64,000 bases of DNA from a virus: IMG/VR virus record IMGVR_UViG_3300005253_000361, positions 1-64,000 of that record. The stretch is one strand, 5' to 3'. This document shows, one piece after another, positions 34,636 to 54,867 of this stretch (position 1 is its first letter; every line of letters starts with the position of its first letter). A program made the position numbers and the translations under genes. A model generated the notes under the pieces. The model ran no database searches, had not been told where the DNA came from, and worked only from the letters and a program-made list of their open reading frames with translations.

Positions 34636-36045
34636 CTATCGGTCCAGCTGGAGACCGGTGTTGTCAGTCGCGATCTCGACGTTGTGGACGAACATCGCGG
34701 CCTGACCACGTTCCTGGCTCCACAGGTAGGCCTCCGCACCCCGGTAGCTCTTGTAGCCCATCCCGTTTGCCCAGGCCGAAGGTGCCGACAGGGTCGGCAT
34801 GATCCGGGTCACGACTCCGTAGGCGTCGTCATACAGGACGTGGGTGGTGCCCTTCCGGTGGTGCTTATCACCGATGTGGAACTCGCAGTATCGAGCCTGG
34901 GCCCATAGCTGCCGGGCCTCGGTCGCCATGATCTCCCCGTAGTGCTTCTGGTTCACAGCACTTTCCCGGCCGTGCGTGAACCCCAAGAGGGTGTTGCCGT
35001 ACAGGAGGTACTTACGAGGGCTGGCCGAATTGTCCACCTGGACGTCCTCGACCCGGTCGTACGCGACCTCCAGGACCTCGCCGAGAGCGAAGCTCAGAAG
35101 CGGGTCGTGGTTGCCCGGGATCACTTTGACGATCACGGGAGCAATAGCACGGCACCGGTCAATGGCCCACCGGTTGAGCCGCTGCCCCTCCCGAAACATC
35201 TTCTGGTGCCGGGTGTCCATGTCCTGGGGGGTGCCGTCGGCCGTGGTGCCGTGGATGTTGTCTGAGTTGAAGAAGTCGTTGCCGGCGACCCAGAGGATCT
35301 GGTCCACGTCGAACCTGGAAGCCTTGGCCAGCAGGTCCTCGACCGCCTCCCGGAACATGCGGCGCTGGATCGTGAGGTCCCAGTCCGCGCCAGTCTCTTC
35401 CGCCCACGCGAGGCTGCAGAGGTGGAAGTCCGCCAGGTGCATCTCCAGCAGGTGGGGTTCGTCATACTGCTGCACCGCCGACTGGCGCTGGAACCATTCG
35501 GTGTCCCGAGTCGCCAGATCAGCCAGGATGTCAGCCTTAGCCTGATCGGCGAAGACCTGCACTCGCTCGATGGGGCGCTTGAGCCCGAACTTGGCATAGA
35601 CCTGCCAGTTGTCCGCCGGCACGAGCTCATCGCCGATCTTGGCCGTGACGGTCCAGACGTTCTCCTTGAAGTCCGTGATCTGGTAGGTCTCGAGATCATG
35701 AGCACAGCCGCGGTCGCGGGCATGCGCCAGGAGCTCCTCAATGTTTGTGATGTTGGCACTTCGGCTGGTCAGCACGACCGACCCGTCCGGAGCTACGGTT
35801 CGCTCAAGCTTTGGACCCTTGTTGATACTCTCCCGGATACCGTCCGACAGTAGAGGGCCGACGGTCTCGTCCCGAATGAGATCGATCAACTTGAGCCGCA
35901 CCGCCTTGGGGGTGCGCTCGGGGTTGCGGAAGATTGGTGCGAGCTCCTCTGCTGCAGCAACGAGCGACTCAGCGTCCCGAACGGTCTCCCATTCACGCTT
36001 GATCTGGTCGAGCTGCCCAGAGGATTCCCAGGACTTCATTCCCAT
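34636..36045 (-). CDS. metallophosphoesterase / nuclease-like protein
   Basis: ADFHL, GNDFFNSD, PGNHD, FTHG, GDKHH. Confidence 0.8.
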   Translation of the reverse strand: MGMKSWESSGQLDQIKREWETVRDAESLVAAAEELAPIFRNPERTPKAVRLKLIDLIRDETVGPLLSDGIRESINKGPKLERTVAPDGSVVLTSRSANITNIEELLAHARDRGCAHDLETYQITDFKENVWTVTAKIGDELVPADNWQVYAKFGLKRPIERVQVFADQAKADILADLATRDTEWFQRQSAVQQYDEPHLLEMHLADFHLCSLAWAEETGADWDLTIQRRMFREAVEDLLAKASRFDVDQILWVAGNDFFNSDNIHGTTADGTPQDMDTRHQKMFREGQRLNRWAIDRCRAIAPVIVKVIPGNHDPLLSFALGEVLEVAYDRVEDVQVDNSASPRKYLLYGNTLLGFTHGRESAVNQKHYGEIMATEARQLWAQARYCEFHIGDKHHRKGTTHVLYDDAYGVVTRIMPTLSAPSAWANGMGYKSYRGAEAYLWSQERGQAAMFVHNVEIATDNTGLQLDR

Positions 36046-37410: not shown

Positions 37411-38280
37411 TTAACCTACAGTCAAACCTATACCGGTGAGCCAGGCGGAATCCATCAAACTCTCACGGATCCGATAGGTCTCCTGGCCCACCAGATCGTG
37501 GAAGATTTCCGGTACCGCGGAGGATATATCCCACGGTCCTGGATCAGCCTCTACGCGCCCCCCCGCGGGGGTGTAGACCCGGATCCCCCGGTCCCACACT
37601 TCTTGCGCACGCCGGTACGCCGCCGCCCGAACCTCGTGCCCGACAGCGTAGAACTCAGCATGCTGGCGGGCCCGCACGACATCGCCGGCCGGGAAGCAGT
37701 TATGGAGATGCTGCAGCTGGATCGAGCACCTACATTCGGGAGGTAAGTTGTGAGAGGTGAATCCGGTACGCTGCGGGTCCTTACCCCGGCGGTGGAAACA
37801 GTCGCCGCCATCCCGACTCTGTAGGTCGGGGAAGTAGCGGAAGCACCGGACCGTCTGATAGACATAAGCCTCGGGGTTGTGTTTCCAGCATGAGGTCGTG
37901 ATGAGCGGTTGCCGAAGGGAGTTGAAACCGGCGGCGTCCGCCCACCGGAGGCCCGTGAGGAACCGATCGTGGTCCCGCGGGTGCAGGTAACCGTCGGCCC
38001 CCATGGAGAGTACCCAGCCGTCATCGACCAGGTGGAGGGCCCGCTCCCAGGGTTCATCCAGCCCCTGCCAGTGCGTACCCTCGTGATGGGGAAATTCAGT
38101 GACCTCGATCCGGGGGAATGCGTCGGCGAGCTCACGGCAGGCCTCGAGCGTCCCGTCGGTGGAGCCGCCGTCGTTGATGATCAGGCGATCCACCAGCGGA
38201 AGCATGAGCACGACGCACTCAACCCACGGGAACATCGCCTCGGTGGTGTTGCGGATGTTGAACAGGCCAGTTATTTTCAT
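37411..38280 (-). CDS. glycosyltransferase family 2
   Basis: IINDGGSTDGT motif. Confidence 0.8.
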   Translation of the reverse strand: MKITGLFNIRNTTEAMFPWVECVVLMLPLVDRLIINDGGSTDGTLEACRELADAFPRIEVTEFPHHEGTHWQGLDEPWERALHLVDDGWVLSMGADGYLHPRDHDRFLTGLRWADAAGFNSLRQPLITTSCWKHNPEAYVYQTVRCFRYFPDLQSRDGGDCFHRRGKDPQRTGFTSHNLPPECRCSIQLQHLHNCFPAGDVVRARQHAEFYAVGHEVRAAAYRRAQEVWDRGIRVYTPAGGRVEADPGPWDISSAVPEIFHDLVGQETYRIRESLMDSAWLTGIGLTVG

Positions 38281-39478
38281 GTCAGCCAGGCGTGGTTCGG
38301 CTGGGACCGCACCCTCCGGAGTCCCCCTTCGAGCTCCTCTACTCGGAGCTCCAGAGCCGCAAAGCGCTTCTCCCACGCTTGCGCCTCAGGCGAACGCAAT
38401 CCGGAGGCCGTCCCGTCACAGTGCCCGCAGCTGGACCCGGAAGTGGGGTCCACTCCATGGGGGCAGCTCACGGGCAGGGGAGTCGTGCGGGTGATCCACT
38501 CCTTCTCCCGCCAGGGCTTGCCACCGTTCGGGTGGTAATCCCCGCAGAAGTCACAGGCGAAACCCAAGCCATAGTCCACCTGGTAATAGAGGCCTTGTCC
38601 GCAGTCATCACACCGTCCTAGATGGCTCATGCTGGGTTCCTCGGTAGCGAGATCACCTCCTCATCCCCGCCGGGTGACCAAGCTGCGTAGACGTAGTAGA
38701 GCGACCAAGCGGCAAAGTAAAAGTCGCAGGGTTTGGACCCTGGGTGCCGCTCCAGCTCGACAACGTCCACAAGGGCCTCTCCATTACACTCCATCTCCTC
38801 AGCGAGCAGCTTGTTCCAGCTGGTGGTACGGCCGTAGCCGGCGTTCATCTCCCGGTCCATGTCGGGGTCGCTCATGCCGCATCCTTAGTCGTAATATCCT
38901 CGGCCCGGATGACGAATTCCAGGCCGCTCAACTCCTGCGTCGCCGGCACCTTGACCCGCACCAGACCTTTCCCCTGGCGGTTGAATACATTGACCACCTC
39001 GACTTTCACGGTTCCGACCTGCCCCACCTCGAGCCCCGGGGTTTCTCGGGCCTGCACGAGAGCCCGCCACTCGATCATCTCATCGTACGAAAGGGAATCA
39101 GCGCCCGACTGACTCCAGAAGAACGCACGCCCCAAGTGGCACTCCCGCAGCAGAGCCTCCCTAGAAACCTCGGAGTCAATCTGAACCTCTGCGTCCCGGT
39201 CGAGCATCAAGCGATACATGCCGCCCGGTATACTGGTATGGATCGGAACGTCCACCACGGCGCAGCCTTCGAAATTACGTGGGCAATGCACAACTGCAGG
39301 AATCCGTACTGTCGTACCGACCTTGAGCTCGCTCATGCCGCATCCTCCTTCTGCGCCTCGGCCAGGAGGGCATCCGCGATATCAAGCGCCTTCTTGGCCG
39401 CCACCTCGACCGCCACATAAGTTTCAGCCGGGTTAGCGGCGAGCCCCGCCATCACGAAAACTGCAATCTCGAGACGGT

Positions 39479-39854: not shown

Positions 39855-41009
39855 TTATGCTGTCGGTTGTTGGCGAATTGCGTCTTCTGGAGATTGAGCC
39901 CGAGCCAAGTGCTGCTGGATCGCCGCCATGGAGGTCCCGTTACCCTCAACTACACCGGCATACTCGTCAGCCTCACGCGCGGCCACAGGAAAGAACCGCA
40001 GAAACAGATCCCTCACCTGCTCGGGGCCCGGGCCTTCAATCTCCCAACGCTGATCTATGCGTCCGGCACGCACCAGCGGCGCCGGTAGAAGGTCTGCATC
40101 GTTGGCGGTGATAACCAGTAGCCGCCCCTCGGACGCGAGCGGCCCATCTATCGTGTTGAGCAGCCCTGCCAGCGTGACGCTCGTGTCGGTGCCGAAGTCG
40201 ATCTTCTCGATGTCCTCCAGCACCACCAGTGATCGCCCCGGCAACTGCGCCATGGCGCGAGCCAACGTGGCGTCATTGAAGTCATCCCCCTGCGACAGCG
40301 TGAGCACATACAGGGGCATTTGGTAGTGGCCGGCGATCGCCTGGACGAGCGAAGACTTGCCGTTTCCAGGGGGCCCCACGAGCAGGTATCCACGCCGATA
40401 CGGCAAACCCCGTTCCACGTGCCACGATCGAGCGTTCCGGAACCAATCAACATCATCGACGATCTCGTCCATCAGACCGGGGCGCAGCACTACCGATTCG
40501 AGTGGTCGCGGTTCGCCGACACGGATCTGTGACCATCCACCGTTCTGGTTATTGATGTACGCGACCTGCTTGCCGCGGCGGCGCAACATTGCCGCATCGA
40601 CCACGTCGTGCACGAGGGCTCGAATCGGGGACGGATCACGTCCCAGCGCTCGCAGGGTGATGGTCCGAGCCTTGGCGCCGGCATAGCCAACCTCTTCGAG
40701 AGTCTGGTGAAGAAGACACCAACGATTCTCGTAACGGAACACGTGCACGCCAAGGCCGGGCTCGAGCACCGCACGCGGCTCGTCTCGTTCGCCCTCGTAA
40801 GCCACGAACCCCGACAGCCTCCGGCAGCTACGGCCGTAGCTGGTCTCGGCGAGCCACTCGCCCATCCAACGCACGAACTCGGTGTCCATCGTGTAGAAGG
40901 ACGCGGTAAAGAATCTATCGAACACGTAGCGGGGCAGGTAGCGCACCGCAGCGGCTGCGGCACCGAGCGCCATGAGGTACAGACCGCCCTCGAAGAACTG
41001 GTTCTCCAT
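39855..41009 (-). CDS. BCS1-like AAA+ ATPase with N-terminal TM segment
   Basis: GLPYRRGYLLVGPPGNGKSS, LEDIE, AGLLNTIDG, RAGRID; LEPGLGVH resembles BCS1_N. Confidence 0.85.
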   Translation of the reverse strand: MENQFFEGGLYLMALGAAAAAVRYLPRYVFDRFFTASFYTMDTEFVRWMGEWLAETSYGRSCRRLSGFVAYEGERDEPRAVLEPGLGVHVFRYENRWCLLHQTLEEVGYAGAKARTITLRALGRDPSPIRALVHDVVDAAMLRRRGKQVAYINNQNGGWSQIRVGEPRPLESVVLRPGLMDEIVDDVDWFRNARSWHVERGLPYRRGYLLVGPPGNGKSSLVQAIAGHYQMPLYVLTLSQGDDFNDATLARAMAQLPGRSLVVLEDIEKIDFGTDTSVTLAGLLNTIDGPLASEGRLLVITANDADLLPAPLVRAGRIDQRWEIEGPGPEQVRDLFLRFFPVAAREADEYAGVVEGNGTSMAAIQQHLARAQSPEDAIRQQPTA

Positions 41010-41980
41010 TACGCCGTCTCTTTCTTCTTCTCGAACATCTTCGTGTAGTCCATCATGGGCCAGAACTGTCCCGCTACTCGGCCCGGGATCTTGTCGTAGG
41101 TGAATGGGAGCAGCCAGGGGTCCGGCTCGACGTGCACGATGTAACGGTGCTGGGTCTCGACGGAGCCGGCGTGCACGGTGAAGGCAGGCGTCACCACCTT
41201 GGCCCACCCGTGGCAGACATCCCACGCCATCGGGAGACTCAGCAGCTGGATCGTCGCCTTGCCGCCTCCGGGAGTGATCTCCTCCATGATCCGGATCCAT
41301 TCCTCGGCCCGGTTGATCGTGGCGCCACACTGGAGTTGACAGGTCAGGTGGAACATCACCCGGGCGCTCGCGTACCGGAGCATGTTGTTCGTGGCCGGAT
41401 GGGCCTTCACCTGCAGTACCTCTACAGGACGCTCCGGGGGATTCGCAATACTGTAGGGGCCGCCCACGTAGGGCAGCTCCAGCGCGCCAGGGGTGTTCTG
41501 GGCCGACTGCCAGATGGGGTCGCAGTACTCCGGCCAGTGCTGGTCAAAAAATCCGACACAACAAGGCGGGAAACCCAATAGATCTCCAATGGCGTTGTGG
41601 TTGGACTCCTCATGGGCTGCCTCGAAGGCATCGAGATTTGCATCATCGGGCGACACCACGGTGAACCAGGAGAAGTTCGGGTCACCCTCACGGAGCGGTG
41701 CGTGCCGGCGGTGGCTGAACCCATCGCTGGGGCCGACCGTAGTGAGCCGGCGCCACTTGAGTCCGTACCGCGCGAGTTTCTCGTACATCCTGTCACCGCC
41801 CACGTTCGGGATGTGGCAGGTACCGCAGGCACGAACACCATCGGCGGCCGTCTTGAGCTCCGCTTCCCAGCAGACACTGGAGGCCAGCTTGAAGGCCGGA
41901 CCCCAGTAGTCGCGCGCCTCGGAGGAGTGGTAGGTGATGCGGGTGAAGCTCGGGGCTTCGAAGTTCGGTAGGAGCTTCAT
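41009..41980 (-). CDS. hypothetical protein with GxLLGFPxCC motif (DUF483-like)
   Basis: IGDLLGFPPCCVGFF, HLTCQLQC. Confidence 0.55.
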   Translation of the reverse strand: MKLLPNFEAPSFTRITYHSSEARDYWGPAFKLASSVCWEAELKTAADGVRACGTCHIPNVGGDRMYEKLARYGLKWRRLTTVGPSDGFSHRRHAPLREGDPNFSWFTVVSPDDANLDAFEAAHEESNHNAIGDLLGFPPCCVGFFDQHWPEYCDPIWQSAQNTPGALELPYVGGPYSIANPPERPVEVLQVKAHPATNNMLRYASARVMFHLTCQLQCGATINRAEEWIRIMEEITPGGGKATIQLLSLPMAWDVCHGWAKVVTPAFTVHAGSVETQHRYIVHVEPDPWLLPFTYDKIPGRVAGQFWPMMDYTKMFEKKKETA

Positions 41981-42312
41981 CGGAGCCTCGCCAACCACAC
42001 AACCTTGCACGCGATGTGTAGGAACTGGTCTTCGTGAACGTTGATCCGGTTCTCGCACTTGGCGAAGTCGATCAGCCAATGCACCACCGTCTCAGCCGCA
42101 CCGAGATAAACGTTGCTGGTGATCGCCCACACGACACCGCCGTGAATGAGAGCGTGAGAGGATAGCCAGTAGGGCCAGCAAAGCGTGCAGGTTGCCCCCG
42201 GCGGTGTCGTGGTTCTGTTGTGTCGGTTCTTGCCCTTCGCCATCGCGTCGGACTGTAGGACGAAGTCCGCCAGGGCGTGCCCGATCAGTAGCGCGAAGAA
42301 TGTCTCGATCAT
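41977..42312 (-). CDS. DUF3307 membrane protein
   Basis: GHALADFVLQ, HALIHG, HWLIDFAK, DQFLH. Confidence 0.8.
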   Translation of the reverse strand: MIETFFALLIGHALADFVLQSDAMAKGKNRHNRTTTPPGATCTLCWPYWLSSHALIHGGVVWAITSNVYLGAAETVVHWLIDFAKCENRINVHEDQFLHIACKVVWLARLR

Positions 42313-42802
42313 TCGCCTAAACCTCCAGAGTCTCGGTCCAGTCCGACGGCAGCCGGGGCAACAGCTCATCCCTCAGCTCCCTATAGCTTTCCAGCGCGAC
42401 CGAATAGAGCCACTCCCGGCCGACAGGATCTCCGTAGGTCATCACAAGAGGCGATCCGTCTGCGCAGAAGGTGTTCTGGATGATCTTTTGCTGCAGGTAC
42501 ACCACCTGACCCAGCAGACGGATCGTTTGGTCTCGGTCGCGCAGGTCCATCTCAGCCTCCATCACACTGTCGATGGGGGTTGGTCCTGATTCTTGCCAAT
42601 CTTCTCGAGTTAGGATCATTGCTTGCTCTCCGGGTGAGGTAGAACAACCACCTCTTTGTAGACGATGTACTCGGGTAAGCCGGTCCAGCCGCAGGGCCAA
42701 CAGATCACGTCACCGCTGAACTGGATGTCGCTGCTGTTCAGATGGTCGAAGGTCTCCTCGTACACCTCGGTGCTGTCGCACTCCGGACAGTGGTACTTGC
42801 CG

Positions 42803-45319
42803 TCAGCCATTTGAATCTCCGTGGTCGTCGTAGTTGCCGTGCGGGACGTTGGCGTGCTCCAGTGGGTTCTTCTGGTGAGCCGCGTCCGCGTGGTCGCCGT
42901 GGTCGTCGTAGTTGCCGTGGGCCACATTCGCGTGGGCGGGATCGTTGGGATCGACAAGCTTCAGTTGGCAAGGGTTGCCGACCGGCGCATCCTCAGTCCG
43001 GACGAACTCAGAGTTCTTCGCCTCGCCTCGCCAGGCCGAGGGACGATACGTGTTGGCTTTCCGCAGCCAGCGGAACGGATCCCAGGGCGGTTCGTTCTGT
43101 TGGATCGAGTGGTAGAGACCATTGGCGTCGAACCGGTGCGCCACCTGGTCAAGTGTCGTGAGATTCGGGATGGTCCGGTGGAGATGGTCCGCTACCGCCT
43201 GATAGAGGCCGGCCCAGCCACGACAGAAGCGGGTGCGGTTGCGCCAGTCACCATCGATCGCGTGACCGTTGCAGTGGCCCGTGCAGACTGCCCACCAGCG
43301 GCACACCTGATCGCCGTCACGTCCATCCACACCGCCGAGGCATCCACCGTGCTCATGCGAGACGCCCCGCAGTATCTCGTAGCGAGCCTCGGAGAACTTC
43401 TTGTCCTCGGCTACCTGGTACGGGATCCCCCCGGCCGCATACAAATGTTCGCAAACTCCGATTGCCGAGTCCTCCTGGATGGTCCGTTCGGCAGCCGTGT
43501 GGAGAGGATCGCATTGGGTCCGAACGCATGTAAATTGGCCGCACCCGAGCAACCCGTCCATCGTTTCCGCGATGGCGGGAAACTGGTAACCCCGACTCAG
43601 ACTCCACGGCACAAACTCTGCCCAGAAGGCTGCCATATCGGTTTCGGAAAGCTCCCAGTCAGAGCGCTCCGGCTCGGTATCGATATGGGCGGGGTTGAGA
43701 CGTGGATTGCGAATACCGTGGTCGGCGAGCCAGTCGATGAACCGCTTCAACTCATCGATCTTCCGACGGTTCTGCCCCGGCACCAGACCCGGGCCGGCGT
43801 TAGCCTTGGTCAGGCAGATGATCAGACCGGGGGGCCGGTGCTCCCTGCAGAGCCGCAGGAGTGTCCGGAGCGTGGCGGCTGTGCCCTCCAGGGTGGTGCG
43901 TAGGGTGTTGCCCATCTTACGAACATCGTTCAGGCGCCCCCAGCCGTCGATCGAGAGCCCCACGTTGACGTTGTACCGCTTGAACATGGCCATGTGGTCG
44001 TCGTCGACCAGCACGCCGTTCGTCTGGATCGCGGCCTTGCCGAACCGCTCGTGGTTGATCCGAAAGATCTCCTCGAGGTCGGCCTTCTTGATCAGAAGAG
44101 GTTCGCCGCCGTGCGCGGTAGCTACCGCGGCGCCGCCCCGATTCTCTTCCTCCCAATCCCACTGGGCATTGATTGCCCGAATGGCCGCGTGGATATCGTA
44201 GTCGTGGGCCTTCTTGACGTTGCCGAGATCCCTGGCGGTGTTCTGGTAACAGTCCACCGAAAGAAACCCTCCAGCCACAAAGGTCTTACTGGTCGTCTCG
44301 ACATCATAAACTTCAGGGTCTCGCTTGTGTCCCATAGGCTCGATGGCCGTAATCTGAGCCCGGGGCGTCTTCGAAACTGCACCCGTAATCGCCACTTTGC
44401 GTGTGAGCGCCGGCCGACAAAGAGAAGCGAACCGTGCAACCTCAGGTCGGCCGCCCCGCATATAGACCCACCATGAATCGTCCGCCTTCTGGGCGATCCG
44501 GACATCGAACCCTAACTTCTCCCAGCAGTACCGAACCTCGTCAATAGCCTCCTGCTCCTTTTGGCAGATGCCAAGACCATTTCGGGTGCCTTCAGCGTCA
44601 AACATGCCTGCGAGCCACCCCTTAATGAATGGAGTACTCCTACCCATCGGAGGGGTTTCGGCGAGATCCATTAACGCGGTCAGGTCATCATTCCGGTGCA
44701 CGCGAGTAAGGTGACTGTAGGAAAGTTCGGCCCCCGTATCCTTTCGCTTGTGGTGCACGCGAGAAAGTTCAACGCCGAAAAGAGATTTGGCGTACAACTC
44801 TACTCGGTCCAGGAGTTCTTGATCCTTCGAATAGACCTTGAAAGTGCTTACGGGACCGCGCTTGCATACGTAATCCCCCCAGCTGCCGTCCCCAAAACTG
44901 ACCCCAGATAGCCACCCAGCTCGATAGTCGCTGTCCTGAGTAATGTCCTCCTTAACGGGGTCACACAAATGCAGGAACGCATCGCCTACCCGTAGGTCCC
45001 TCGTCCGGACCACACAATGGCGGTCCTGCCGCTTAACGAGCCACTCATGATCCGGTGTCGACTTGACCTCCCCTGCAGTCGTGGTGATGCGAATCAACCG
45101 CTCACGCTTGCGGATGAGGCGAATAACTTCCGTATCAACGTACCGTCGATACTTCTTGCCCTCCACAGCATCGAGTTCCCAGGAAACCAGGCGGTCCCCA
45201 ACCTCGACAGACTCGATGGGTTTCCAACTACCGTCGGTCAACAGCATCAGTGTGCCCTTGGCCAGACAGTGGCTACACGACAGGTTGCAGGCGCGCGTCA
45301 ACTTGGTTGATTGCGGCAA
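42803..45319 (-). CDS. radical SAM/SPASM peptide-maturase-like enzyme with intein and C-terminal His/Asp repeats
   Basis: CNLSCSH|C motif, HGGEPLL, IQTNG, GLSIDG, SPASM-type Cys array (CRWWAVCTGHC...RFC); TTG start with strong SD. Confidence 0.9.
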   Translation of the reverse strand: MPQSTKLTRACNLSCSHCLAKGTLMLLTDGSWKPIESVEVGDRLVSWELDAVEGKKYRRYVDTEVIRLIRKRERLIRITTTAGEVKSTPDHEWLVKRQDRHCVVRTRDLRVGDAFLHLCDPVKEDITQDSDYRAGWLSGVSFGDGSWGDYVCKRGPVSTFKVYSKDQELLDRVELYAKSLFGVELSRVHHKRKDTGAELSYSHLTRVHRNDDLTALMDLAETPPMGRSTPFIKGWLAGMFDAEGTRNGLGICQKEQEAIDEVRYCWEKLGFDVRIAQKADDSWWVYMRGGRPEVARFASLCRPALTRKVAITGAVSKTPRAQITAIEPMGHKRDPEVYDVETTSKTFVAGGFLSVDCYQNTARDLGNVKKAHDYDIHAAIRAINAQWDWEEENRGGAAVATAHGGEPLLIKKADLEEIFRINHERFGKAAIQTNGVLVDDDHMAMFKRYNVNVGLSIDGWGRLNDVRKMGNTLRTTLEGTAATLRTLLRLCREHRPPGLIICLTKANAGPGLVPGQNRRKIDELKRFIDWLADHGIRNPRLNPAHIDTEPERSDWELSETDMAAFWAEFVPWSLSRGYQFPAIAETMDGLLGCGQFTCVRTQCDPLHTAAERTIQEDSAIGVCEHLYAAGGIPYQVAEDKKFSEARYEILRGVSHEHGGCLGGVDGRDGDQVCRWWAVCTGHCNGHAIDGDWRNRTRFCRGWAGLYQAVADHLHRTIPNLTTLDQVAHRFDANGLYHSIQQNEPPWDPFRWLRKANTYRPSAWRGEAKNSEFVRTEDAPVGNPCQLKLVDPNDPAHANVAHGNYDDHGDHADAAHQKNPLEHANVPHGNYDDHGDSNG
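44252..45268 (-). mobile_element. intein (339 aa) with LAGLIDADG-type homing endonuclease
   Basis: Starts CLAKGT...WKPIESVEVGD; WLSGVSFGDGS and WLAGMFDAEG blocks; ends VYDVET...FVAGGFLSVD before extein Cys. Confidence 0.9.
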
Positions 45320-45344
45320 GGTTCCCCCTCCTTTGGCCGACTCC

Positions 45345-45716
45345 TCAGTCGGCGCGAACTCGAAATGGCGTCTGCTTCTCCAGATAGATAGTGTGCTGGT
45401 GGCCCGGAATACCGGGCTCGATAGTCGGGTAGAGCGCGAACGCCTGAAGGACCTCGCAGGTCATCCCGACCGGATAGCGCCGCAAGAACCACCTGGGGGC
45501 GAAGCGTTGCTTAACCGCCTGCCACCAATCAGTTGGCCACTCGCAGTGGACCTCCTCGACAGTCTTCCCCAGCACCCGCATCTCAACGTCAACAACGAGC
45601 TCCTCGAGCTGCAGGTCCCAGTGGGCAGTCGGCAGGTCAAAAAGACGCCCGTGCAGAATCTTCCGTTGGTGAAAGCGCAAGACGTCGAGGACGACCTTTT
45701 CGGTCTCGATGTTCAT
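45345..45716 (-). CDS. hypothetical protein
   Basis: Hairpin + SD upstream; WPTDWWQAVKQRF. Confidence 0.55.
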   Translation of the reverse strand: MNIETEKVVLDVLRFHQRKILHGRLFDLPTAHWDLQLEELVVDVEMRVLGKTVEEVHCEWPTDWWQAVKQRFAPRWFLRRYPVGMTCEVLQAFALYPTIEPGIPGHQHTIYLEKQTPFRVRAD

Positions 45717-45738
45717 AGGTAGGTTCCCCCTCCTTTGA

Positions 45739-46005
45739 TCAGCCCCTCAGCCGACCTCGAGTAGCCCTCGCTCGCTCCAGCTGAGCGGACAAGATGTCGA
45801 GCCACTCCTGGGCCCGCTCAAGAGTCATACGGCGAGTGGCCATCACCTCGCCATTGACGATGTACTTGTCAAAGCCCCCCTCGGGGACCGGCACGTTCCA
45901 CTCGAGGTCGACCTTGACCGCCGAGCCGGTCTCACCCCAGGCCTCGATCGGGACGAGATTCGGGCCGTGAATATCGTCGAGTTCTACGAGATGTGCAGAT
46001 GCCAT
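45739..46005 (-). CDS. hypothetical protein
   Basis: Hairpin + SD upstream. Confidence 0.55.
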   Translation of the reverse strand: MASAHLVELDDIHGPNLVPIEAWGETGSAVKVDLEWNVPVPEGGFDKYIVNGEVMATRRMTLERAQEWLDILSAQLERARATRGRLRG

Positions 46006-46346
46006 ATAGGTTCCCCCTCCTTTTTCCCTCGGTCGGCCGGTCCCTCAACCGACGCAGCTACTCTGCTAAATCACCGCGCCACTGTCCAGTGAACTCTCAC
46101 CGTCAGGAAGTTTTTATTTCCTCGCCCGTACGCTCGTTCAGCATCACGGTATTGCCGCAGACCGGGCAGCTGAACCGATCGCTCGTCTGGGGATCCCGAT
46201 GGGGTGGTACCCCGGTGAACATGTGGGCATAGGCGAGCCCGCCCCGGATGCCCTCGCAAGCAGCCCGCCAGACGGTTTCGCCGCAAGCCGCGCAGTCGAT
46301 GAAATCCTCCTTACGGAACAGCACTTCTGTCTCCATCTTCCCCCTC

Positions 46347-47747
46347 CTAGACCCCGATCTCGGTCGGGTCGTCCACGTAGGCCACTGACAGATTGTCGTC
46401 GTGGTTGTCGTGGGCGGTGTCGGTGTGTGGTGTCGCGTCCTGGTGCGTTACATCGTCGTGGTCGGTGTAATTTGAGTGGGCGGTGTCGTCGTGGTCCGCG
46501 TGGTTCGTATGGGCGGTGTCGTTGTGATCGTCGTGGTTGATGTGGGCTACATCCGCGTGATCCTGGTGGTTGTCGTGGGCGACATCCGTATGGTCGTCAT
46601 GGTTGGTGTGCGCGGTGTCGGTGTGGTCGGTGTGGTTCACGTGCGCGACGTCGTCGTGATCGCTGTAGTTGATGTGGGCGACGTCAGAGTGGTCCGTATA
46701 GTCCGCGTGGGCCGTGTTGTTGTGGGATGAGGTGTCGGTATGGGCCACATCGGTGTGGTCGGTGTAGTTGGCGTGTGAAGCATTAGTGAAGTCGTCGTAG
46801 TCGGAGTGCGCGACATCGCTGTGGTCGGAGTGGTCCGAGTGGGCTAGGTCCCCGTGATCGGTGTAATCGTCATAATCGGTATAATCCTCGTGGAATGGAA
46901 CATCGTCCCAATCATCGTGGTACGTCTGGTCGTGGCTATTGTCCAGATTGTCGTGCGCTACGTCGCTATGATCGTTCCAGTCGTCATGAACGACATCAAC
47001 ATGATCGTCCCAGTCGTCATAAGCGGTGTCGGTGTGGTTATTGATGTTGCTGTGCGCGACGTTGTTGTGATCGGACCAGTTGATGTGAGTGACGTCGCTG
47101 TGGTCCGAATGGTTCGTGTGGGCGGTGTCGGAGTGATCGGTGTGGTTGTCGTGCACCGTATCGGTGTGCTGGGTCGAGGTGTTGTCCACGTAGGCTGTAT
47201 CATCGTGATCCGAGATATCAGTATGGGAGACGTCATCGTGATCGGTGTAGTTGCTGTGGGCCGTGTCGGAATGGTCGCTGTAATTTATGTGAGCGACATC
47301 GGAGTGGTCTGAACCGGTGTTGTCGTCATGCGCGACATCGGCGTGGTCACTGTGGTTGTCGTGGGCCACGTCAGAATGATCTGAATGATTGTCGTGGGCC
47401 GCGTCGCCATGGTCGCTGTAGTTGGTGTGCGCGACGTCAGCGTGCCCAATTACCTCCCGGCCCGACTCGCCAATCCAACGCCAGCGACCGTTGCCGGTGT
47501 CGTCCTCGACCCAATAACTACCTTGTACCCCGTCGCTGTGCGACTGGATATCGATCGGGAGACGGCGCTCATCCCCAGTGGCGCTAACGTAGTGCCAGTA
47601 ATCCCCTTCTACCCAGTAGCTGCCCACGACTGCCGGACTCGGAGTCGAGACGTACTCGGCCGTCTGGTATTGCCACTCCGAGGCAACCTCGTCGATGAAG
47701 CACCAGTAGTCCCCCTCGACCCAGAACGATCCAGCAGTCTTAGCCAT
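46347..47747 (-). CDS. His/Asp-rich repeat protein (putative fibre-tip adhesin / maturase substrate)
   Basis: About 100-aa Trp-rich N-domain with three GS[FY]WVE[GD]D motifs, then about 30 eleven-residue HxN-[YHW]xD-HxD-xA repeats. Confidence 0.85.
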   Translation of the reverse strand: MAKTAGSFWVEGDYWCFIDEVASEWQYQTAEYVSTPSPAVVGSYWVEGDYWHYVSATGDERRLPIDIQSHSDGVQGSYWVEDDTGNGRWRWIGESGREVIGHADVAHTNYSDHGDAAHDNHSDHSDVAHDNHSDHADVAHDDNTGSDHSDVAHINYSDHSDTAHSNYTDHDDVSHTDISDHDDTAYVDNTSTQHTDTVHDNHTDHSDTAHTNHSDHSDVTHINWSDHNNVAHSNINNHTDTAYDDWDDHVDVVHDDWNDHSDVAHDNLDNSHDQTYHDDWDDVPFHEDYTDYDDYTDHGDLAHSDHSDHSDVAHSDYDDFTNASHANYTDHTDVAHTDTSSHNNTAHADYTDHSDVAHINYSDHDDVAHVNHTDHTDTAHTNHDDHTDVAHDNHQDHADVAHINHDDHNDTAHTNHADHDDTAHSNYTDHDDVTHQDATPHTDTAHDNHDDNLSVAYVDDPTEIGV

Positions 47748-47756
47748 CCCGACCCC

Positions 47757-48647
47757 CTATACGGTGACCCACTTGTTCGCCCCAATCGGAGCGATCGCTC
47801 CGGCGAGTCCCCTGAGGTTACGGCTCGAATCCACGACGGTCGTGGCACCGATCTGCAGACTGTCCGCCTCGAGCGTCGCGATACCGGTAATGTTGAAGGC
47901 GCCTGTCGCCCAATGGGCTGTAAGCGCGATCGAACCGCCGGCCCGAAGGAAGGCCGCGCTACTGAGACTGTCGAGCGTGTCAGCGTCCAAGCCGGTCTCG
48001 TTGACCGCGATCGTGATTTGATTCCCGGGGTTATCCGGGGTGATGACGATTTGGTTTCCAGCCACCAAGTTGACGTCCCCGCCTGAATTCGACACCCCGT
48101 CGATACTCGCGAGCGCGCCCGCTTGGGCCGCCGTTACGCTGTGGGGGTTCGAGGTCGAGGACACGTGAGGGTCGACATACCCCTTGGTCGTGAGGTCGTT
48201 CGACCCTGAAGGTGTGGCGCCCCGGACGATCGCGTAGGCCGAATCGCCCGCGTTGCGTGCCGCCACGACACCGGCCGCCTCCCGCTGGAACCACACATCG
48301 AGCGCAGAACCAACGCCGGCACCGAACGCAATACCGCTGCGGGACGCGTCAAGCTGCACCACCGGATTCGCATCACCGGCCGCCCCGTAGAGACTGGCAT
48401 CCACACCGACGTAGAAAACATCAGACGCAATCGGGATCCAGTCGGCCCCGTCGAAGCTGAAGTAGAAGATGTCCTCGTCGGTCGCCATGTACTGCTGCGA
48501 TACAGCTGGGGCCGCCGGTAGGTTCACCACGGGTCCGTAGTCCGCCTCGGTCATCGCGAGGTAGATGAAGTCGTTCAGGTCGGAGGCACGCGTGGTGGTG
48601 CCGACCGACACCTCATAGAGCGACAGATCACGGACAGGTGTTGCCAC
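47757..48647 (-). CDS. tail fibre protein, paralog 2
   Basis: N-terminus MATPVRDLSLY...ADYG paralogous to 51190..52926; DLTTKGYVD, SNPHSVTAAQ and LDADTLD fibre motifs. Confidence 0.75.
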   Translation of the reverse strand: MATPVRDLSLYEVSVGTTTRASDLNDFIYLAMTEADYGPVVNLPAAPAVSQQYMATDEDIFYFSFDGADWIPIASDVFYVGVDASLYGAAGDANPVVQLDASRSGIAFGAGVGSALDVWFQREAAGVVAARNAGDSAYAIVRGATPSGSNDLTTKGYVDPHVSSTSNPHSVTAAQAGALASIDGVSNSGGDVNLVAGNQIVITPDNPGNQITIAVNETGLDADTLDSLSSAAFLRAGGSIALTAHWATGAFNITGIATLEADSLQIGATTVVDSSRNLRGLAGAIAPIGANKWVTV

Positions 48648-50875: not shown

Positions 50876-51193
50876 CTACGCTGGGTTAAGGTCGGTTTCG
50901 TCTTCGGAGGTAGTGCCGGCGCCGAGCTTCCCGTCAGCCACCAGCTGGTCCAGCACGACCTGGCGCAGTCTTGGCTTGGCCCCAGAGAAGTCCTTTCGAT
51001 TTATGGCCCGGATCAACACCTTGGCCTCCGCACCATGGTAGGTATGCTGGGTCGGACGCTCCAGGGCGTCGTGGGTCTCGATCGACACCAGGTACTGATC
51101 CTCCGCGGGGGCGAAACGGAGACGGAAATCCACCACCTCTACGGTCGAGAGATCCACCATCAGAGGGGTGTCGAGTACTAGGGTTGCGCTCAT
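50876..51193 (-). CDS. small tail-associated protein
   Basis: Overlaps the stop of the fibre gene. Confidence 0.5.
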   Translation of the reverse strand: MSATLVLDTPLMVDLSTVEVVDFRLRFAPAEDQYLVSIETHDALERPTQHTYHGAEAKVLIRAINRKDFSGAKPRLRQVVLDQLVADGKLGAGTTSEDETDLNPA

Positions 51194-52926
51194 GCAGCCA
51201 ACTTCCTTTCGAGTTCGGCCACCTTGGCCTTGAGACGTCGGACCTCGGGTTCGAGCTTGTCGACACGAGGCATTAGTCGTTCAATGTCTGCTGTGTGCTC
51301 GTTGAATCCGGCCACCACCAGCGGTAGCACCTTGCTGTACTTCAGACCGAGGAACCCATCGGGGTCGGTATAGACCGCCTCAGGCAGAACCTTCTGAACG
51401 TCCTGCGCGATGAGGAACGCACGCCGTTGCCCTGCCGCCTTCGCGTCGAAGCGTTCCGATTCGATGAAGTACCCTGTCTCGGTGCGCAGCGTGCCGAGCT
51501 TACGGGTGGCGTCCACGATAGGCTCCAGGCCGGTCTTGAGACGCTCGTCCGAAACGGCCACCCACGCGGTCGCACCTAAGGTCAGGTCGACGCCACCCGA
51601 GCCTCCCGCGACGCAGCGAATCACATCGGCGGACACCTCGGTGAGATACGTGTTGCTGCCACCGTCGAGGTAGAGCTTCTTGGTGGACCCTAGCGACCAG
51701 TTCCCCATGACGCCACTGGTCTGTGCAGCCACGCGGAAGTACGCGGCCAAACCGCCACCGGTATAGATGTCGATGCGGTTGGCGCTGGACTCGGTGATGT
51801 ACGTGTCGCTGCCGCCGTCGAGGAAGAGCTTCTTCAACGGGTCTACTGACGCTGATTGGCGGAACTTCCAAATACCCGAAGTCGAGCTCACCATTACCGT
51901 TCCGCCGACTACAACTTGGTAGTTGTCTACGCTGGACTCGGTGATGTACGTGTCACCGCCGCCATCCAAGTAGAGCTTCTTGAGGGCCGACAGGTAGATG
52001 TCGTCGGTAAAGCTCCACTGGCCCGTGATGACCTCGGCAACCCCGACCTGCGGGACCCCAACAGCCGTGAGGTTGCCCGTGTGGACCAGAGTCCGGGTCG
52101 CGTCAGGCGTGATGGTCTCGTCGGCCGACAGGATGCCACTGAACTCGAGAAGCTGCGGATCACTACCGCCGGAGAACTTGAGCGCTCGCGCGTTGCCTGA
52201 CCAGCTGGTCGAGATCGATTTGTAATTCCCGGCCCCGTCCTCGTACACGTTGACCCCGATCAACCCGTACCCAGCCGTGAACTCCTGGATGCAGAAGTAG
52301 CTGCCGACCAGGATCCGGTCGTCCCGCAGGAGCGTGATGTCGGCCCCCGACATCTGAAGATCGCCCGTCATGATGCCGCCAGCCAGCGCGACAGCACCCG
52401 TCTGACCTGCCGACACCCCGTGCGGATTCGCGCCCGAGCTCGCATGGGTGTCATGGTGGCTCTTCGTCACGTAATCGTTGTCGCCGACCGGGGCGAGGCC
52501 GCGCATGATCCCGTAGGCACTGTTGGCGGCGTTACGGATCGCCACAACCTCGGTGGCCTCACGCTGGACGAAGGTGTCGTGCGCGTTCGAACCCCCTTGG
52601 CCGAACCCGACGGCTGTCCGGCTCGCGCTCAACTGGACCTTGGAATAGGTATCCGAGACGGCCCCGTAGAGATCCAGATCATCGCCCATCTGGACCTTGG
52701 TGCTCGCGATCGGCGTCAGGGTGCCGGCCTCGAGCGCCATGTAGAAGACCCCGCTGTCCGTGGCGAGATACTGCTGACTCACGGCGGGCGAACCCGGCCG
52801 GCTACCGTAGAGGCCGTAGTCGGTCTCGGTCAGGCTGAGGTAGAGAGCGTTGTTCTGATGGGATGCTCGGGTAGTGTTGCCCGGGCTAACTGTATAGAGC
52901 GATACGTCGCGAACCGGCGTGGCCAC
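51190..52926 (-). CDS. tail fibre with C-terminal intramolecular chaperone (peptidase S74)
   Basis: SDERLK...FLIAQDVQKVLPEAV...LKYSKV plus coiled coil; three KKL[YF]LDGGxxTY repeats. Confidence 0.85.
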   Translation of the reverse strand: MATPVRDVSLYTVSPGNTTRASHQNNALYLSLTETDYGLYGSRPGSPAVSQQYLATDSGVFYMALEAGTLTPIASTKVQMGDDLDLYGAVSDTYSKVQLSASRTAVGFGQGGSNAHDTFVQREATEVVAIRNAANSAYGIMRGLAPVGDNDYVTKSHHDTHASSGANPHGVSAGQTGAVALAGGIMTGDLQMSGADITLLRDDRILVGSYFCIQEFTAGYGLIGVNVYEDGAGNYKSISTSWSGNARALKFSGGSDPQLLEFSGILSADETITPDATRTLVHTGNLTAVGVPQVGVAEVITGQWSFTDDIYLSALKKLYLDGGGDTYITESSVDNYQVVVGGTVMVSSTSGIWKFRQSASVDPLKKLFLDGGSDTYITESSANRIDIYTGGGLAAYFRVAAQTSGVMGNWSLGSTKKLYLDGGSNTYLTEVSADVIRCVAGGSGGVDLTLGATAWVAVSDERLKTGLEPIVDATRKLGTLRTETGYFIESERFDAKAAGQRRAFLIAQDVQKVLPEAVYTDPDGFLGLKYSKVLPLVVAGFNEHTADIERLMPRVDKLEPEVRRLKAKVAELERKLAA

Positions 52927-52929
52927 TCA

Positions 52930-54867
52930 TTACCACCACCTTGATGCGTCTGCGGAGGACTCGTCAGCCGGGTCAATGTACCCGTTGTCGTCCGTCCAGA
53001 ACCCCTGAACCTGCTTCTGTTCTTCTGTTGCGTCGGCCCAATCGGCGGCAGTAGGGGTGGTCCAGTTCCCGATCCCGGTCACGCCCTTCTGGTTGTTCAG
53101 CAGGAGCTCGATCCGGGGGATCGGGCTGAAGGAGCGGATGATCTGGATGACCTCCATGACCCGGTTGGTCCAGGAGCCGTCAGCCGAGGGAGCGCGGGCG
53201 GTCGTCAGGAGGATGCGGTCGCCGATCTTCACCTCAGACATGCCGAGTCCGGTCTCGATCACCCGCACCTCAGTGTCGGGATTGGCCGACACGAACCGGA
53301 CCCGTTCAGCGAGCTCCACTGCTTGCGCGGCCGTGGTGAGGTAGGTCGTGATGACTCGGTCCTCGGTGCGGCCGTCCAGCTGGACATACCGCGCCTCGTT
53401 GTCAGTCCGCTCCCGCGTGAGGAACCTACGTGACGTCGGGTTCTCCGCGTACCGGACCAGCACCCTAGAGAAGATCGTCTCGATCTTGGTCTCTGGGGCA
53501 AATTCCATGATGATGGGGTCGTCCAGCACCGGAGCCCCCACGGGGTAGTAGGGGTACCAGATGGTCGGCTGGATCAGACCCGTGAGACCACGGATCGTCC
53601 GCCCCATCACACCCCGCTCGAAGTTGCGGATGTAGGTGCGGGCCGACTGCTCATCCTGGATGTAAGCCGCCTGGGCCCACGGCTGGAACGCGTCCGAGTC
53701 GGTCGCGCCAGTCGAGTCGATCTCGGCGTCCAGCAACCCGAGGTAGTTCGTGTAGATCTCGCAGACAATCTCGCCGTAGTACTTCAGGTAGTCAGTCGAG
53801 GTCTCCCAGGCCTTACCGCGCGCGGGCTGCCCGGTGGCATCGCACGTAACCACCCCGGGCGTACCACTGTACTGACCCAGGATGGTGAGGCTGCAGCCCG
53901 TGAGATCGAGCGTCATGTCGCCGGCGTCGATCTCGACCCCGTCGTCGTAGACCGCGTCAATGGAGTAGAGAGTCTGGTAGGCCGGGTCCGCCACGAGGTA
54001 CTTACCCTTGTTGTCGGTGGTGTCGACCAGCTTGGGCGTGATGCCGGTCTTGACGCCAAAGAGCAACGGGATCCTGGTCCCCCGGACCTCCTCATCCGTG
54101 TTGGGGTAGTTGTCCTCGAAGATAGGCGTGACCGGCAGGTTGCGGTACGCCACCTTCTGCTTGTCCCGGACCATCAGCGTCATGGTCTTCATACCGGGCG
54201 CGATCGATTCAACGTACAGTTCGGCAATCTCGGCGTAGTCGCCCCCGCCGCCCGGCGTGTGGGCAAGTGAGTCGCCGCCGAAGTACACCCGGACCTTGGC
54301 GTTCTTCCAGGCCCAGGTCGCGGAGAGCCGGTCGAACATCCCGTCCGCGTTGCTGATCGAGAGCTCGCCCGACGCGACACGCTTGACCGGGCCCCAGAAC
54401 AGGTCCTCGGTCGACTCGGTTACGGACGGCAGCGCCTCAGCGGTCAACCGGGGGTCGTAGATGATGCGGCCGAAGATCCTGGGGTGGGACGCCAGATGGA
54501 TACGGAAGAAGCTCACCATAGCGGTATAGAGGTCCGGGTCGACCGAGCCAGTAGTGCTGCAGTAGAGAGTGGAGGTTGAGCCGAGGGACTGCTCGTCGTA
54601 GTACCAGGAGCCCGCCGCAGCATCGCAGGCCGCGATCGACGCCACCTCGGTCAGATCTACATCGTTCTGCCGGAGCCCAGTCAGCTTCCGGTAGAGGCCG
54701 CCCTTCTGGATGTCGGTGCCGACGAAGTTCTCGAACGTGATCTCCCACACATTCGTCCGGCCGGCCGTCTTGCTCCAGCCGGCGAGCTTCTGCTTCGGCG
54801 TGATCTCGACCAGCACGATCGCCTCCCGGACCGTCTGGTCGATGAAGTTCTCAAAGGCCTGCGACAA
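52930..54867 (-). CDS. tail hub / baseplate protein
   Basis: Position between distal tail and fibre genes; GTRIPLLFG motif. Confidence 0.6.
   Translation of the reverse strand: MSQAFENFIDQTVREAIVLVEITPKQKLAGWSKTAGRTNVWEITFENFVGTDIQKGGLYRKLTGLRQNDVDLTEVASIAACDAAAGSWYYDEQSLGSTSTLYCSTTGSVDPDLYTAMVSFFRIHLASHPRIFGRIIYDPRLTAEALPSVTESTEDLFWGPVKRVASGELSISNADGMFDRLSATWAWKNAKVRVYFGGDSLAHTPGGGGDYAEIAELYVESIAPGMKTMTLMVRDKQKVAYRNLPVTPIFEDNYPNTDEEVRGTRIPLLFGVKTGITPKLVDTTDNKGKYLVADPAYQTLYSIDAVYDDGVEIDAGDMTLDLTGCSLTILGQYSGTPGVVTCDATGQPARGKAWETSTDYLKYYGEIVCEIYTNYLGLLDAEIDSTGATDSDAFQPWAQAAYIQDEQSARTYIRNFERGVMGRTIRGLTGLIQPTIWYPYYPVGAPVLDDPIIMEFAPETKIETIFSRVLVRYAENPTSRRFLTRERTDNEARYVQLDGRTEDRVITTYLTTAAQAVELAERVRFVSANPDTEVRVIETGLGMSEVKIGDRILLTTARAPSADGSWTNRVMEVIQIIRSFSPIPRIELLLNNQKGVTGIGNWTTPTAADWADATEEQKQVQGFWTDDNGYIDPADESSADASRWW

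Follow-up and report, generated by a model that had tools for sequence, protein, structure and literature searches.

A candidate protein-maturation module of array protein, radical SAM/SPASM enzyme and DUF483-like partner in the tail-fibre region of a large phage

The window analysed here comprises the first 64,000 nucleotides (nt) of a 117-kb IMG/VR virus record, IMGVR_UViG_3300005253_000361, for which CheckV estimates a completeness of 67%. In its tail-fibre region, on the minus strand, lie the genes of a 466-residue protein built largely from aromatic-x-Asp/Asn triplets (the array protein), of a radical S-adenosylmethionine (SAM) enzyme of the SPASM subgroup that is split by a putative intein, and of an LGFPPCC protein distantly resembling DUF483 (the partner). 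The substrates known for radical SAM maturases are short peptide antibiotics and, since very recently, a single bacterial defence protein. In the present case, strong comparative evidence ties an enzyme of the radical SAM class to long arrays on phage tail proteins and giant bacterial proteins. The three genes and their parts are as follows.

46347-47747, minus strand: array protein, 466 residues; N-terminal beta domain, ~350-residue array and short C-terminal strand
47439-47747, minus strand: residues 1-103 of the array protein, its N-terminal domain; built from GS-x-W-[VI]-E-G-like units, three in number (GS-x-W-V-E-G-D-Y-W-like)
46380-47438, minus strand: array, residues 104-456; ~30 units, most of them 11 residues long, with three aromatic-x-D/N triplets per unit; the proposed substrate
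42803-45319, minus strand: radical SAM/SPASM enzyme precursor, 838 residues, intein-split; starts 1,028 nt downstream of the array gene
45269-45319, minus strand: N-extein, residues 1-17; C-N-L-S-C-S-H, with the first two Cys of CX3CX2C, aligned to the intein-less relative P0002
44252-45268, minus strand: putative intein, 339 residues (18-356), with a LAGLIDADG homing-endonuclease domain; boundaries inferred by alignment with intein-less relatives
42803-44251, minus strand: C-extein; rest of the radical SAM core, SPASM-type Cys region, D-G-D-W-R-N-R signature and C-terminal tail
42806-42940, minus strand: C-terminal tail of the enzyme, with the triplets H-A-N, H-G-N, Y-D-D, H-G-D and H-A-D
41009-42079, minus strand: partner ('LGFPPCC') protein, distant DUF483-like, recognised from BLASTP relatives, Pfam and a predicted complex; the true start is probably Met34, at 41980

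A preliminary description of the window had noted a 466-residue repeat protein after the tail fibres, and our analysis bears this out. Over the whole protein, 69 of the 71 histidines have Asp (48) or Asn (21) at position +2. In the repeat region the same holds for 88 of 90 aromatic residues (His 68/69, Tyr 15/15, Trp 4/4, Phe 1/2), and the 68 H-x-[DN] triplets found there compare with a mean of 23.2 (standard deviation 3.5, maximum 34) in 2000 composition-preserving shuffles. The array consists of 25 units of exactly 11 residues, [VT]-A-H-x-N-[HYW]-[ST]-D-H-x-D, together with two 13-residue units, one irregular 38-residue stretch and a 24-residue end. His, Tyr and Trp alternate at one position of the repeat, and Asp follows all of them. 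As the 33-nt period of the DNA is only 66-77% matched, the pattern is maintained at the protein level and does not reflect fresh duplication.

The AlphaFold2 prediction for the array protein, made with 31 sequences, gives an all-beta fold for residues 1-103 (predicted local distance difference test, pLDDT, ~90), no secondary structure for array residues 104-456 (pLDDT ~42) and a short strand for the last block, residues 461-466 (pLDDT 88). A fold search with the N-terminal domain gave no clear solved fold, the best Z being 3.4 and beta-prism II lectins reaching only Z 2.7, and a search of BFVD returned one real match, an unnamed 342-residue viral protein (E 1.3e-11). The array protein matched no family in Pfam, PHROGs or NCBIfam, and phmmer found no match to it in the PDB at E 1.

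The radical SAM/SPASM enzyme that had been placed about 1 kb downstream on the same strand is present at the distance listed above, and is identified by its Cys pattern and by Pfam Radical_SAM (PF04055; 37.7 bits, cut-off 29.5). The intein contains a LAGLIDADG_3 domain (32.5 bits, cut-off 22.5), and its score with the Intein_splicing model, 27.6 bits, is under that model's cut-off of 35.8. It is inserted inside the CX3CX2C motif, between C-N-L-S-C-S-H and C-Y-Q, so that the motif is whole only after splicing. The first residue of the intein is Cys, and the +1 residue is likewise Cys, the third of the radical SAM motif. The three closest relatives of the enzyme (P0002-P0004, 44-47% identity) have no intein.

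After the radical SAM core, eight cysteines are invariant in 18 sequences (C245, C250, C270, C307, C320, C326, C330 and C346 in alignment A1). The SPASM core has the exact form CX2CX5CX3C in relatives and reads C-x12-C-x5-C-x3-C in the clade of the window. By its sequence, this Cys-rich region, of the kind that holds two auxiliary 4Fe-4S clusters, places the enzyme in the SPASM subgroup. Its best solved relative is the anaerobic sulfatase-maturating enzyme (anSME) 4K36, which the family profile matches over its full length (positions 2-353 against 5-371, E 4.8e-24), followed by the triceptide synthase ChlB 9GM3, matched over the core (E 1.9e-18). In NCBIfam the best matches are XyeB, YhhB, DynA, anSME, FxsB and AmcB, all far under their cut-offs. 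Scores of the C-extein, with cut-offs, are 58.9/450 bits for XyeB (TIGR04496), 56.0/445 for YhhB (NF041707), 50.6/450 for DynA (NF041298), 41.2/370 for FxsB (TIGR04269), 40.6/425 for AmcB (NF041718) and 34.4/310 for GrrM/OscB (TIGR04261), and 47.7/349 for anSME (TIGR03942); intein-less relatives score 35.8-110.9 bits with the six cyclophane families, against cut-offs of 310-450. The GrrM, FxsB and XyeB families named in the preliminary description therefore do not include the enzyme. Since it lies under every curated cut-off, we regard it as a member of a separate, uncurated family within the peptide- and protein-modifying SPASM group. That family numbers 347 proteins at E 0.001 and has three forms: a plain one (~385 residues), one with an H-G-D-type tail, and one of ~660 residues with an extra C-terminal domain.

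Scanning viral contigs with the single protein returned no relatives of the enzyme; an alignment-based scan then found 95, of which 80 loci were kept. With identity thresholds of 90%, 70% and 50%, their enzymes form 58, 45 and 14 clusters. We called an array where an open reading frame (ORF) on the same strand, at most 5 kb from the enzyme, held at least 12 aromatic-x-D/N triplets in 150 residues. By this measure 74 of the 80 viral loci have an array beside the enzyme, directly upstream in 58 and nearby in 16 more, and the six loci without one have an upstream flank of only 0 to 2,235 nt. Arrays account for 109 of the 3395 ORFs of at least 100 residues in the viral loci. The notion of repeat protein and enzyme as a dedicated pair, first put forward from the window alone, is thus upheld across viruses, and we consider it very likely, from this comparison of sequences, that the array protein is the substrate of the radical SAM enzyme. 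Relatives of the N-terminal domain (residues 1-100, BLASTP) occur in 45 of the 80 viral loci and in 42 distinct proteins, and by sequence the domain is conserved at the start of free-standing array proteins.

Bacterial genomes gave 89 relatives of the enzyme, of which 80 loci were kept, and the array test was passed in 46 of these. When 17 further bacterial loci were read by eye, 7 showed short H-x-D arrays at the very C-terminus of a large upstream protein. At three loci (L108, L152 and L159; Myxococcota and Alphaproteobacteria metagenome-assembled genomes and Nannocystis), the gene immediately before that of the enzyme encodes a giant protein (1179-2267 residues) with a short P-H-[IV]-D array at its end, so the module extends beyond phages. 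The upstream protein of the cyanobacterial locus L120 likewise ends in an H-x-D array.

The composition of the arrays points to the triplet itself as the conserved unit. In 107 viral array ORFs, 3693 of 3777 histidines have Asp (79%) or Asn (19%) at +2, a figure that is partly circular because the arrays were picked by this motif, and positions -1 and +1 vary. Triplets are spaced by 3, 5 or 11 residues in different phages while the spacing from His to Asp stays constant; as the unit length varies, what is conserved is the triplet and not a structural repeat. At one locus, L057, an array protein with the same N-terminal domain and in the same module has F-x-[DN] triplets that hold 39 of its 42 phenylalanines. 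Metal binding would hardly allow His to be replaced by Phe or Trp, whereas triceptide synthases, which link an aromatic carbon to C-beta of the third residue, tolerate such replacement, and the triplet does have the form of the triceptide aromatic-X-X motif, as had been suggested for the window.

The enzyme's own tail carries the same triplets, and in a search of its own genome the array protein matches this tail (E 1.3e-6). At least two H-x-D motifs occur in the last 45 residues of 62 of the 80 viral-locus enzymes, and in the last 60 residues of 25 of 120 relatives among the matches listed. The tail is not essential, since H-x-D is absent from the last 45 residues of the enzyme in 17 of the 80 viral loci. 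The idea that the tail copies the substrate was tried on the Phe-array locus L057 and dropped, the enzyme there having no F-x-N tail.

Two variants of gene order were seen among the viral loci. Six (L031, L033, L040, L052, L060 and L062) have two to four tandem array genes upstream of a single enzyme, with A-A-H-T-D-N-T-T-P-like units. On six AT-rich viral contigs (L013, L036, L043, L045, L046 and L061) a DUF483 or DUF483-methyltransferase gene lies upstream of the enzyme, which is of the form without an H-x-D tail; the array gene is further upstream again in L036, L043, L045 and L046, and L061 is cut off, with no array visible.

Relatives of the partner were found by BLASTP in 68 of the 80 viral loci, usually directly after the enzyme, and in 56 of the 80 genome loci. 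Its assignment to DUF483 (PF04467, cut-off 25) comes through these relatives. The window copy scores 11.8 bits (E 0.26), two relatives exceed the cut-off (L022, 30.6; L036, 30.2) and others fall in between (L040, 24.5; L007, 20.7; L012, 17.4; L003, 16.5; gp11 of Thermus phage Cumys, 16.1), and BLASTP between the window partner and these DUF483-scored relatives gives E 3e-19 to 2e-49. The predicted fold is confident (pLDDT 85.3), with residues P171, C173, C174, C251 and G291 invariant and H244, C247 and A293 nearly so. Foldseek found no match at E 0.001 among at least 500 rows, and in a VIA fold search the best hit, 2guk (Z 5.2, root-mean-square deviation (rmsd) 4.3, 104 aligned), and NleE 4r29 (Z 4.0, rmsd 3.1, 99 aligned) were both within the common range; no fold is assigned to the partner.

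A predicted complex supports, but does not prove, binding between enzyme and partner. The model scored 0.82 and the best of three controls 0.00. Of 80 solved complexes 58 attained that mark, as did 2 of 110 mismatched pairs; these benchmark counts hold only roughly, as our own alignments were used for the complex model. Contacts agreed between runs by at least 80%, with partner pLDDT of at least 84, and the modelled interface sets the enzyme's D-G-D-W-R-N-R, an invariant signature of the family, against partner residues 289-292, which belong to a conserved block. No comparable solved complex came to light, which makes it unlikely that the predictor only reproduced a known structure; the two proteins are, however, fused in some bacteria. 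Partner and enzyme share an open frame in 8 of the 80 genome loci. A fused Paenibacillus form of 662 residues did not match the window partner significantly (BLASTP E 0.069) and has no Pfam DUF483; as it gave no support, the case for fusion rests on the 8 other genome loci and on a preprint on Thermus phages (bioRxiv 10.1101/2024.08.14.607894).

Further enzymes accompany the partner at some loci. All four long phage partners tested with Pfam have a class I methyltransferase domain fused to DUF483, and relatives of the window's family-2 glycosyltransferase occur in 3 of the 80 viral loci (L004, L007 and L009), each time directly after the DUF483 gene. From this placement, the glycosyltransferase may be an accessory enzyme of the module. 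At locus L084 (Thermus phage phiLo, 5424-7936; 178-kb genome), IS605-type transposase genes precede the genes of the enzyme and of a DUF483 protein whose annotation reads methyltransferase.

The module is embedded in the tail region, where the gene order on the minus strand runs from the tape measure through two tail-module genes, a tail fibre, three ORFs and a fibre paralogue to the array protein. Downstream of the array gene follow three small ORFs, the radical SAM gene, a zinc-ribbon ORF, a 127-residue ORF, the DUF3307 gene and the LGFPPCC gene, and then the BCS1-like AAA ATPase, four small ORFs and the glycosyltransferase. In the window, then, six small genes are inserted among the three core genes (array, radical SAM and partner), whose order is kept. 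The surrounding features are these.

55668-60827, minus strand: tape measure protein
54870-55643, minus strand: tail-module gene
52930-54867, minus strand: tail-module gene, two genes after the tape measure
51190-52926, minus strand: tail fibre; 21 PHROG families matched, 18 of them tail, best E 9e-19
47757-48647, minus strand: tail-fibre paralogue, the gene next upstream of the array gene; its N-terminus recurs in the fibre at 51190-52926
41977-42369, minus strand: DUF3307 protein (Pfam 43.9 bits, cut-off 23)
39855-41330, minus strand: BCS1-like AAA ATPase (Pfam BCS1_N 60.4 bits, AAA 48.8 bits, AAA_lid_BCS1); the true start is probably near 41009
37411-38376, minus strand: family-2 glycosyltransferase (Pfam Glycos_transf_2 23.4 bits, cut-off 23.3)

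The two fibres are nearly identical in their first 40 residues and differ in their C-terminal parts, as if alternative fibres had one attachment domain in common. Among the small genes, ORF 42616-42957 (minus strand) overlaps the enzyme's tail in another frame, and its second half, from an internal Met near 42810, reads as a small zinc-ribbon-like protein (C-P-E-C ... C-W-P-C); another small ORF with Cys pairs lies at 46103-46336. Between ~33000 and 36000 the GC skew falls from ~+0.1 to 0 or lower and coding changes from mostly the plus to the minus strand; a DNA repair exonuclease is encoded at 34636-36045 (PHROG 704, E 1e-64). A megablast of the region against phage records gave no match.

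Comparison with other phages narrows the list of parts. The preliminary description had listed DUF3307, the LGFPPCC protein and the AAA ATPase after the enzyme; of these, the LGFPPCC protein belongs with the pair, by its presence in most viral loci and its predicted complex with the enzyme. For DUF3307, the AAA ATPase and the small ORFs, the zinc ribbon among them, BLASTP (E 1e-4) found relatives in 0 of the 80 viral loci, and on this comparison DUF3307 and the BCS1-like AAA ATPase are neighbours that stand outside the conserved module. The preliminary description had proposed to ask whether arrays, enzyme and LGFPPCC protein recur together near tail genes elsewhere; the three do recur together, by the counts given above, and in other phages arrays are fused to tail proteins. 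At two loci (L009 and L076), homologues of the window's tail-module ORF 52930-54867 (E 5e-22 and 4e-13) carry the array as their C-terminal portion, and the L009 protein also matches a tail-fibre PHROG. Arrays end proteins of 766-1476 residues at L014, L017, L019, L023/L024, L029 and L053, three of which (L014, L019 and L053) were tested against PHROG and gave no match. At L033, collagen-like (G-P-T) repeats are joined to arrays, and in the window itself the fibre paralogue ends ten bases before the array gene. Gene position and these fusions make it probable that the tail bears the array product as a stiff appendage resistant to proteases. As the trio recurs in many phages and bacteria, the phage probably modifies a protein of its particle with a chemistry known from peptide antibiotics.

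In the model that we propose, the three genes serve this large phage as a module for protein maturation, placed among its tail-fibre genes; taken whole, with the ring chemistry included, we judge this statement to be evenly balanced. The intein would first splice out and restore CX3CX2C. The radical SAM/SPASM enzyme, acting in a complex with its DUF483-like partner as the structural model and the gene fusions suggest, would then work, as the conserved linkage implies, on every aromatic-x-Asp/Asn triplet of the array, a stretch with no predicted structure. By analogy, the C-beta hydrogen of Asp or Asn would most likely be abstracted and the carbon coupled with the aromatic side chain (His, Tyr, Trp or Phe) that stands two positions earlier, and the outcome could be up to ~90 three-residue rings of the triceptide type. 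A second modification might follow by the glycosyltransferase, in whose place most other phages have the methyltransferase fused to DUF483. It is tempting to go further and to speculate that many phages and bacteria make 'protein-scale RiPPs' (ribosomally synthesised and post-translationally modified peptides), in which a complex of SPASM enzyme and DUF483 protein staples up to ~90 rings into the array of a tail protein and so yields a rigid, protease- and heat-resistant appendage; this generalisation we hold tentatively, and would sooner doubt than assert.

Several observations weigh against such a model. The last residue of the intein is Asp and not the usual Asn, so that splicing can only be assumed, and scans of metagenomes for contigs of the closest, intein-less relatives P0002-P0004 found none. 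The Pfam SPASM model does not match the window enzyme at E 0.01, scores of 34-59 bits against cut-offs of 310-450 leave it under every curated cyclophane family, and anSME, which makes no cross-link, is an equally near or nearer relative than these families. No array at threshold was seen in 29 of the 80 bacterial loci, and 10 of the 17 read by eye showed none. A methyltransferase or glycosyltransferase in the module could mean another end product. Finally, we found no virion proteomics for cultured relatives.

Some of these points feed an alternative in which enzyme, partner and substrate are the same and the chemistry is another: epimerisation, oxidation of Asp or Asn at C-beta, or a different ring bond, the product then being methylated or glycosylated. 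Such a reaction would suit an enzyme that meets no curated cyclophane family and has an oxidase, anSME, as its best solved relative over the full length. The methyltransferase fused to most phage partners, and the glycosyltransferase at three close loci, suggest a handle for a second group, and the maturation of an HxS-repeat protein in the HXS system is reported to add 8 Da, which is not simple ring formation (PMC13128918). Against this, the exchange of His, Tyr, Trp and Phe with Asp or Asn fixed at the third position suits ring formation, and neither epimerisation nor oxidation of Asp alone needs an aromatic residue that is freely exchanged. Attack on a Ser at the middle position in the manner of anSME was rejected as unlikely, as that position varies across viral arrays. 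All told, we think a different chemistry somewhat unlikely.

An alternative compatible with either chemistry leaves the enzyme at work on the array and moves the product out of the virion: the modified protein would be intracellular, secreted or injected, with a role in anti-defence or host takeover or as an HXS-like effector. The free-standing form, of N-terminal domain and array, does match no known structural family, its array is predicted to be disordered, and in bacterial relatives short arrays sit on giant proteins that are not phage-like; the HXS effector is, moreover, a precedent for a protein matured by radical SAM enzymes (PMC13128918). We nevertheless consider a product outside the particle quite unlikely, given an array gene directly after the tail fibres, fusions to tail-module proteins at L009 and L076, arrays at the C-terminal end of large upstream proteins of unknown family at L014, L017, L019, L023, L029 and L053, the collagen-like fusion at L033, and a Cumys gene that follows baseplate and tail collar fibre genes.

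One could also take the His/Asp array for a metal-binding fibre segment that is left unmodified, the radical SAM enzyme and the DUF483 protein doing something else, such as DNA modification. His and Asp are classic metal ligands, and the fibre tips of phage T4 bind iron through His-x-His motifs. In some cyanobacteria, homologues lie near deazapurine DNA-modification genes (bioRxiv 10.1101/2024.08.14.607894), but this reading is very improbable in the face of an array that accompanies the enzyme in nearly all viral loci and also at the cyanobacterial locus L120, of Trp, Tyr and the Phe-x-Asn variant at the His position, which cannot bind metal likewise, of a triplet repeated in the enzyme's own tail, and of an enzyme from the peptide- and protein-modifying SPASM group.

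If the module does install rings, a macrocyclisation of the natural-product type would for the first time have been found in a virus particle, and the product would be the most heavily cross-linked ribosomal product known. Virions could then carry enzyme-installed cross-links, DUF483 would gain a role, and a new substrate logic would emerge, that of a folded domain with dozens of motifs and an enzyme whose tail copies the motif. The enzyme family concerned runs to hundreds of members, with no function assigned. The literature searched, which did not extend to supplements (triceptide networks, Thermus figures), contained no paper linking His-x-Asp arrays, phage tail proteins and radical SAM enzymes.

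Four known systems bear on the module. Among solved structures, anSME (4K36) comes closest when the whole length is compared, with the auxiliary-cluster region included; its targets are proteins, from which it takes a C-beta hydrogen. It differs in that it oxidises one Cys or Ser of a sulfatase motif to formylglycine, and the substrates here have no such motif. The triceptide systems (HaaB, YhhB, HtkB, XyeB and ChlB) use an anSME-like SPASM enzyme on an aromatic-X-X motif that is often repeated and accept His as a ring donor, and rings from His-C2 to C-beta on HAA, HNR and HTK motifs are established chemistry (PMC11499958). Here too an aromatic-X-X substrate lies next to the enzyme gene, as the 88 of 90 aromatics in the window and the 74 of 80 viral loci attest. 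Their substrate, however, is a short peptide with a leader, whereas here it is a protein with a folded domain and up to ~90 triplets, the third residue is Asp or Asn, and there is a seemingly obligatory DUF483 partner, a phage tail setting and a separate enzyme family.

Among systems studied by experiment, the one that comes nearest to radical SAM maturation of a repeat protein is HXS (HxsA-D), a periplasmic antiphage effector of bacteria with five HxS repeats, two radical SAM enzymes and HxsD (Nat Commun 2026, PMC13128918). Both cases have a protein with His-x-small-residue repeats and dedicated radical SAM maturation; the module described here differs in its dozens of aromatic-x-D/N triplets, its single radical SAM enzyme with a DUF483 protein, and its phage tail setting. 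Two relatives of our enzyme reach 45.2 (P0012) and 38.9 bits (P0005) with HxsB (TIGR03978, cut-off 370), and HxsB is not among the matches listed for the window enzyme (the best 25 of 33 NCBIfam families). With only one radical SAM gene, the module falls outside HXS, which is marked by the pair of HxsB (TIGR03978) and HxsC (TIGR03977) together with HxsD and an HxS protein.

The same trio is carried by the Thermus phages Cumys and phiMa, for which an 'rSAM module' of radical SAM enzyme, DUF483 protein and a third protein of unknown function has been noted in a preprint, the only mention of the module in the literature searched (bioRxiv 10.1101/2024.08.14.607894). In its available text, the preprint also reports similar loci in prophages and fusions of DUF483 to methyltransferase or radical SAM domains, labels two of the proteins 'unknown function' and puts forward a role in DNA modification; histidine is nowhere named in that text. 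The preliminary description knew of no account of RiPP-type chemistry on a virion protein; the trio of genes itself has been noted in this preprint, where the His-x-Asp arrays go unmentioned. Cumys and phiMa share the three genes with the window, in unchanged order and on a single strand beside tail genes, and in Cumys the module follows genes for the baseplate and the tail collar fibre. In that phage gp13 combines the same N-terminal domain with an H-x-D array, gp12 has an HGD tail, and gp11 is 32% identical to the window partner (E 4e-33). The window differs from them by its intein, by the extra small genes between the core genes and by the family-2 glycosyltransferase nearby. As these cultured Thermus phages carry the module, the question of what it does to the array is directly testable.

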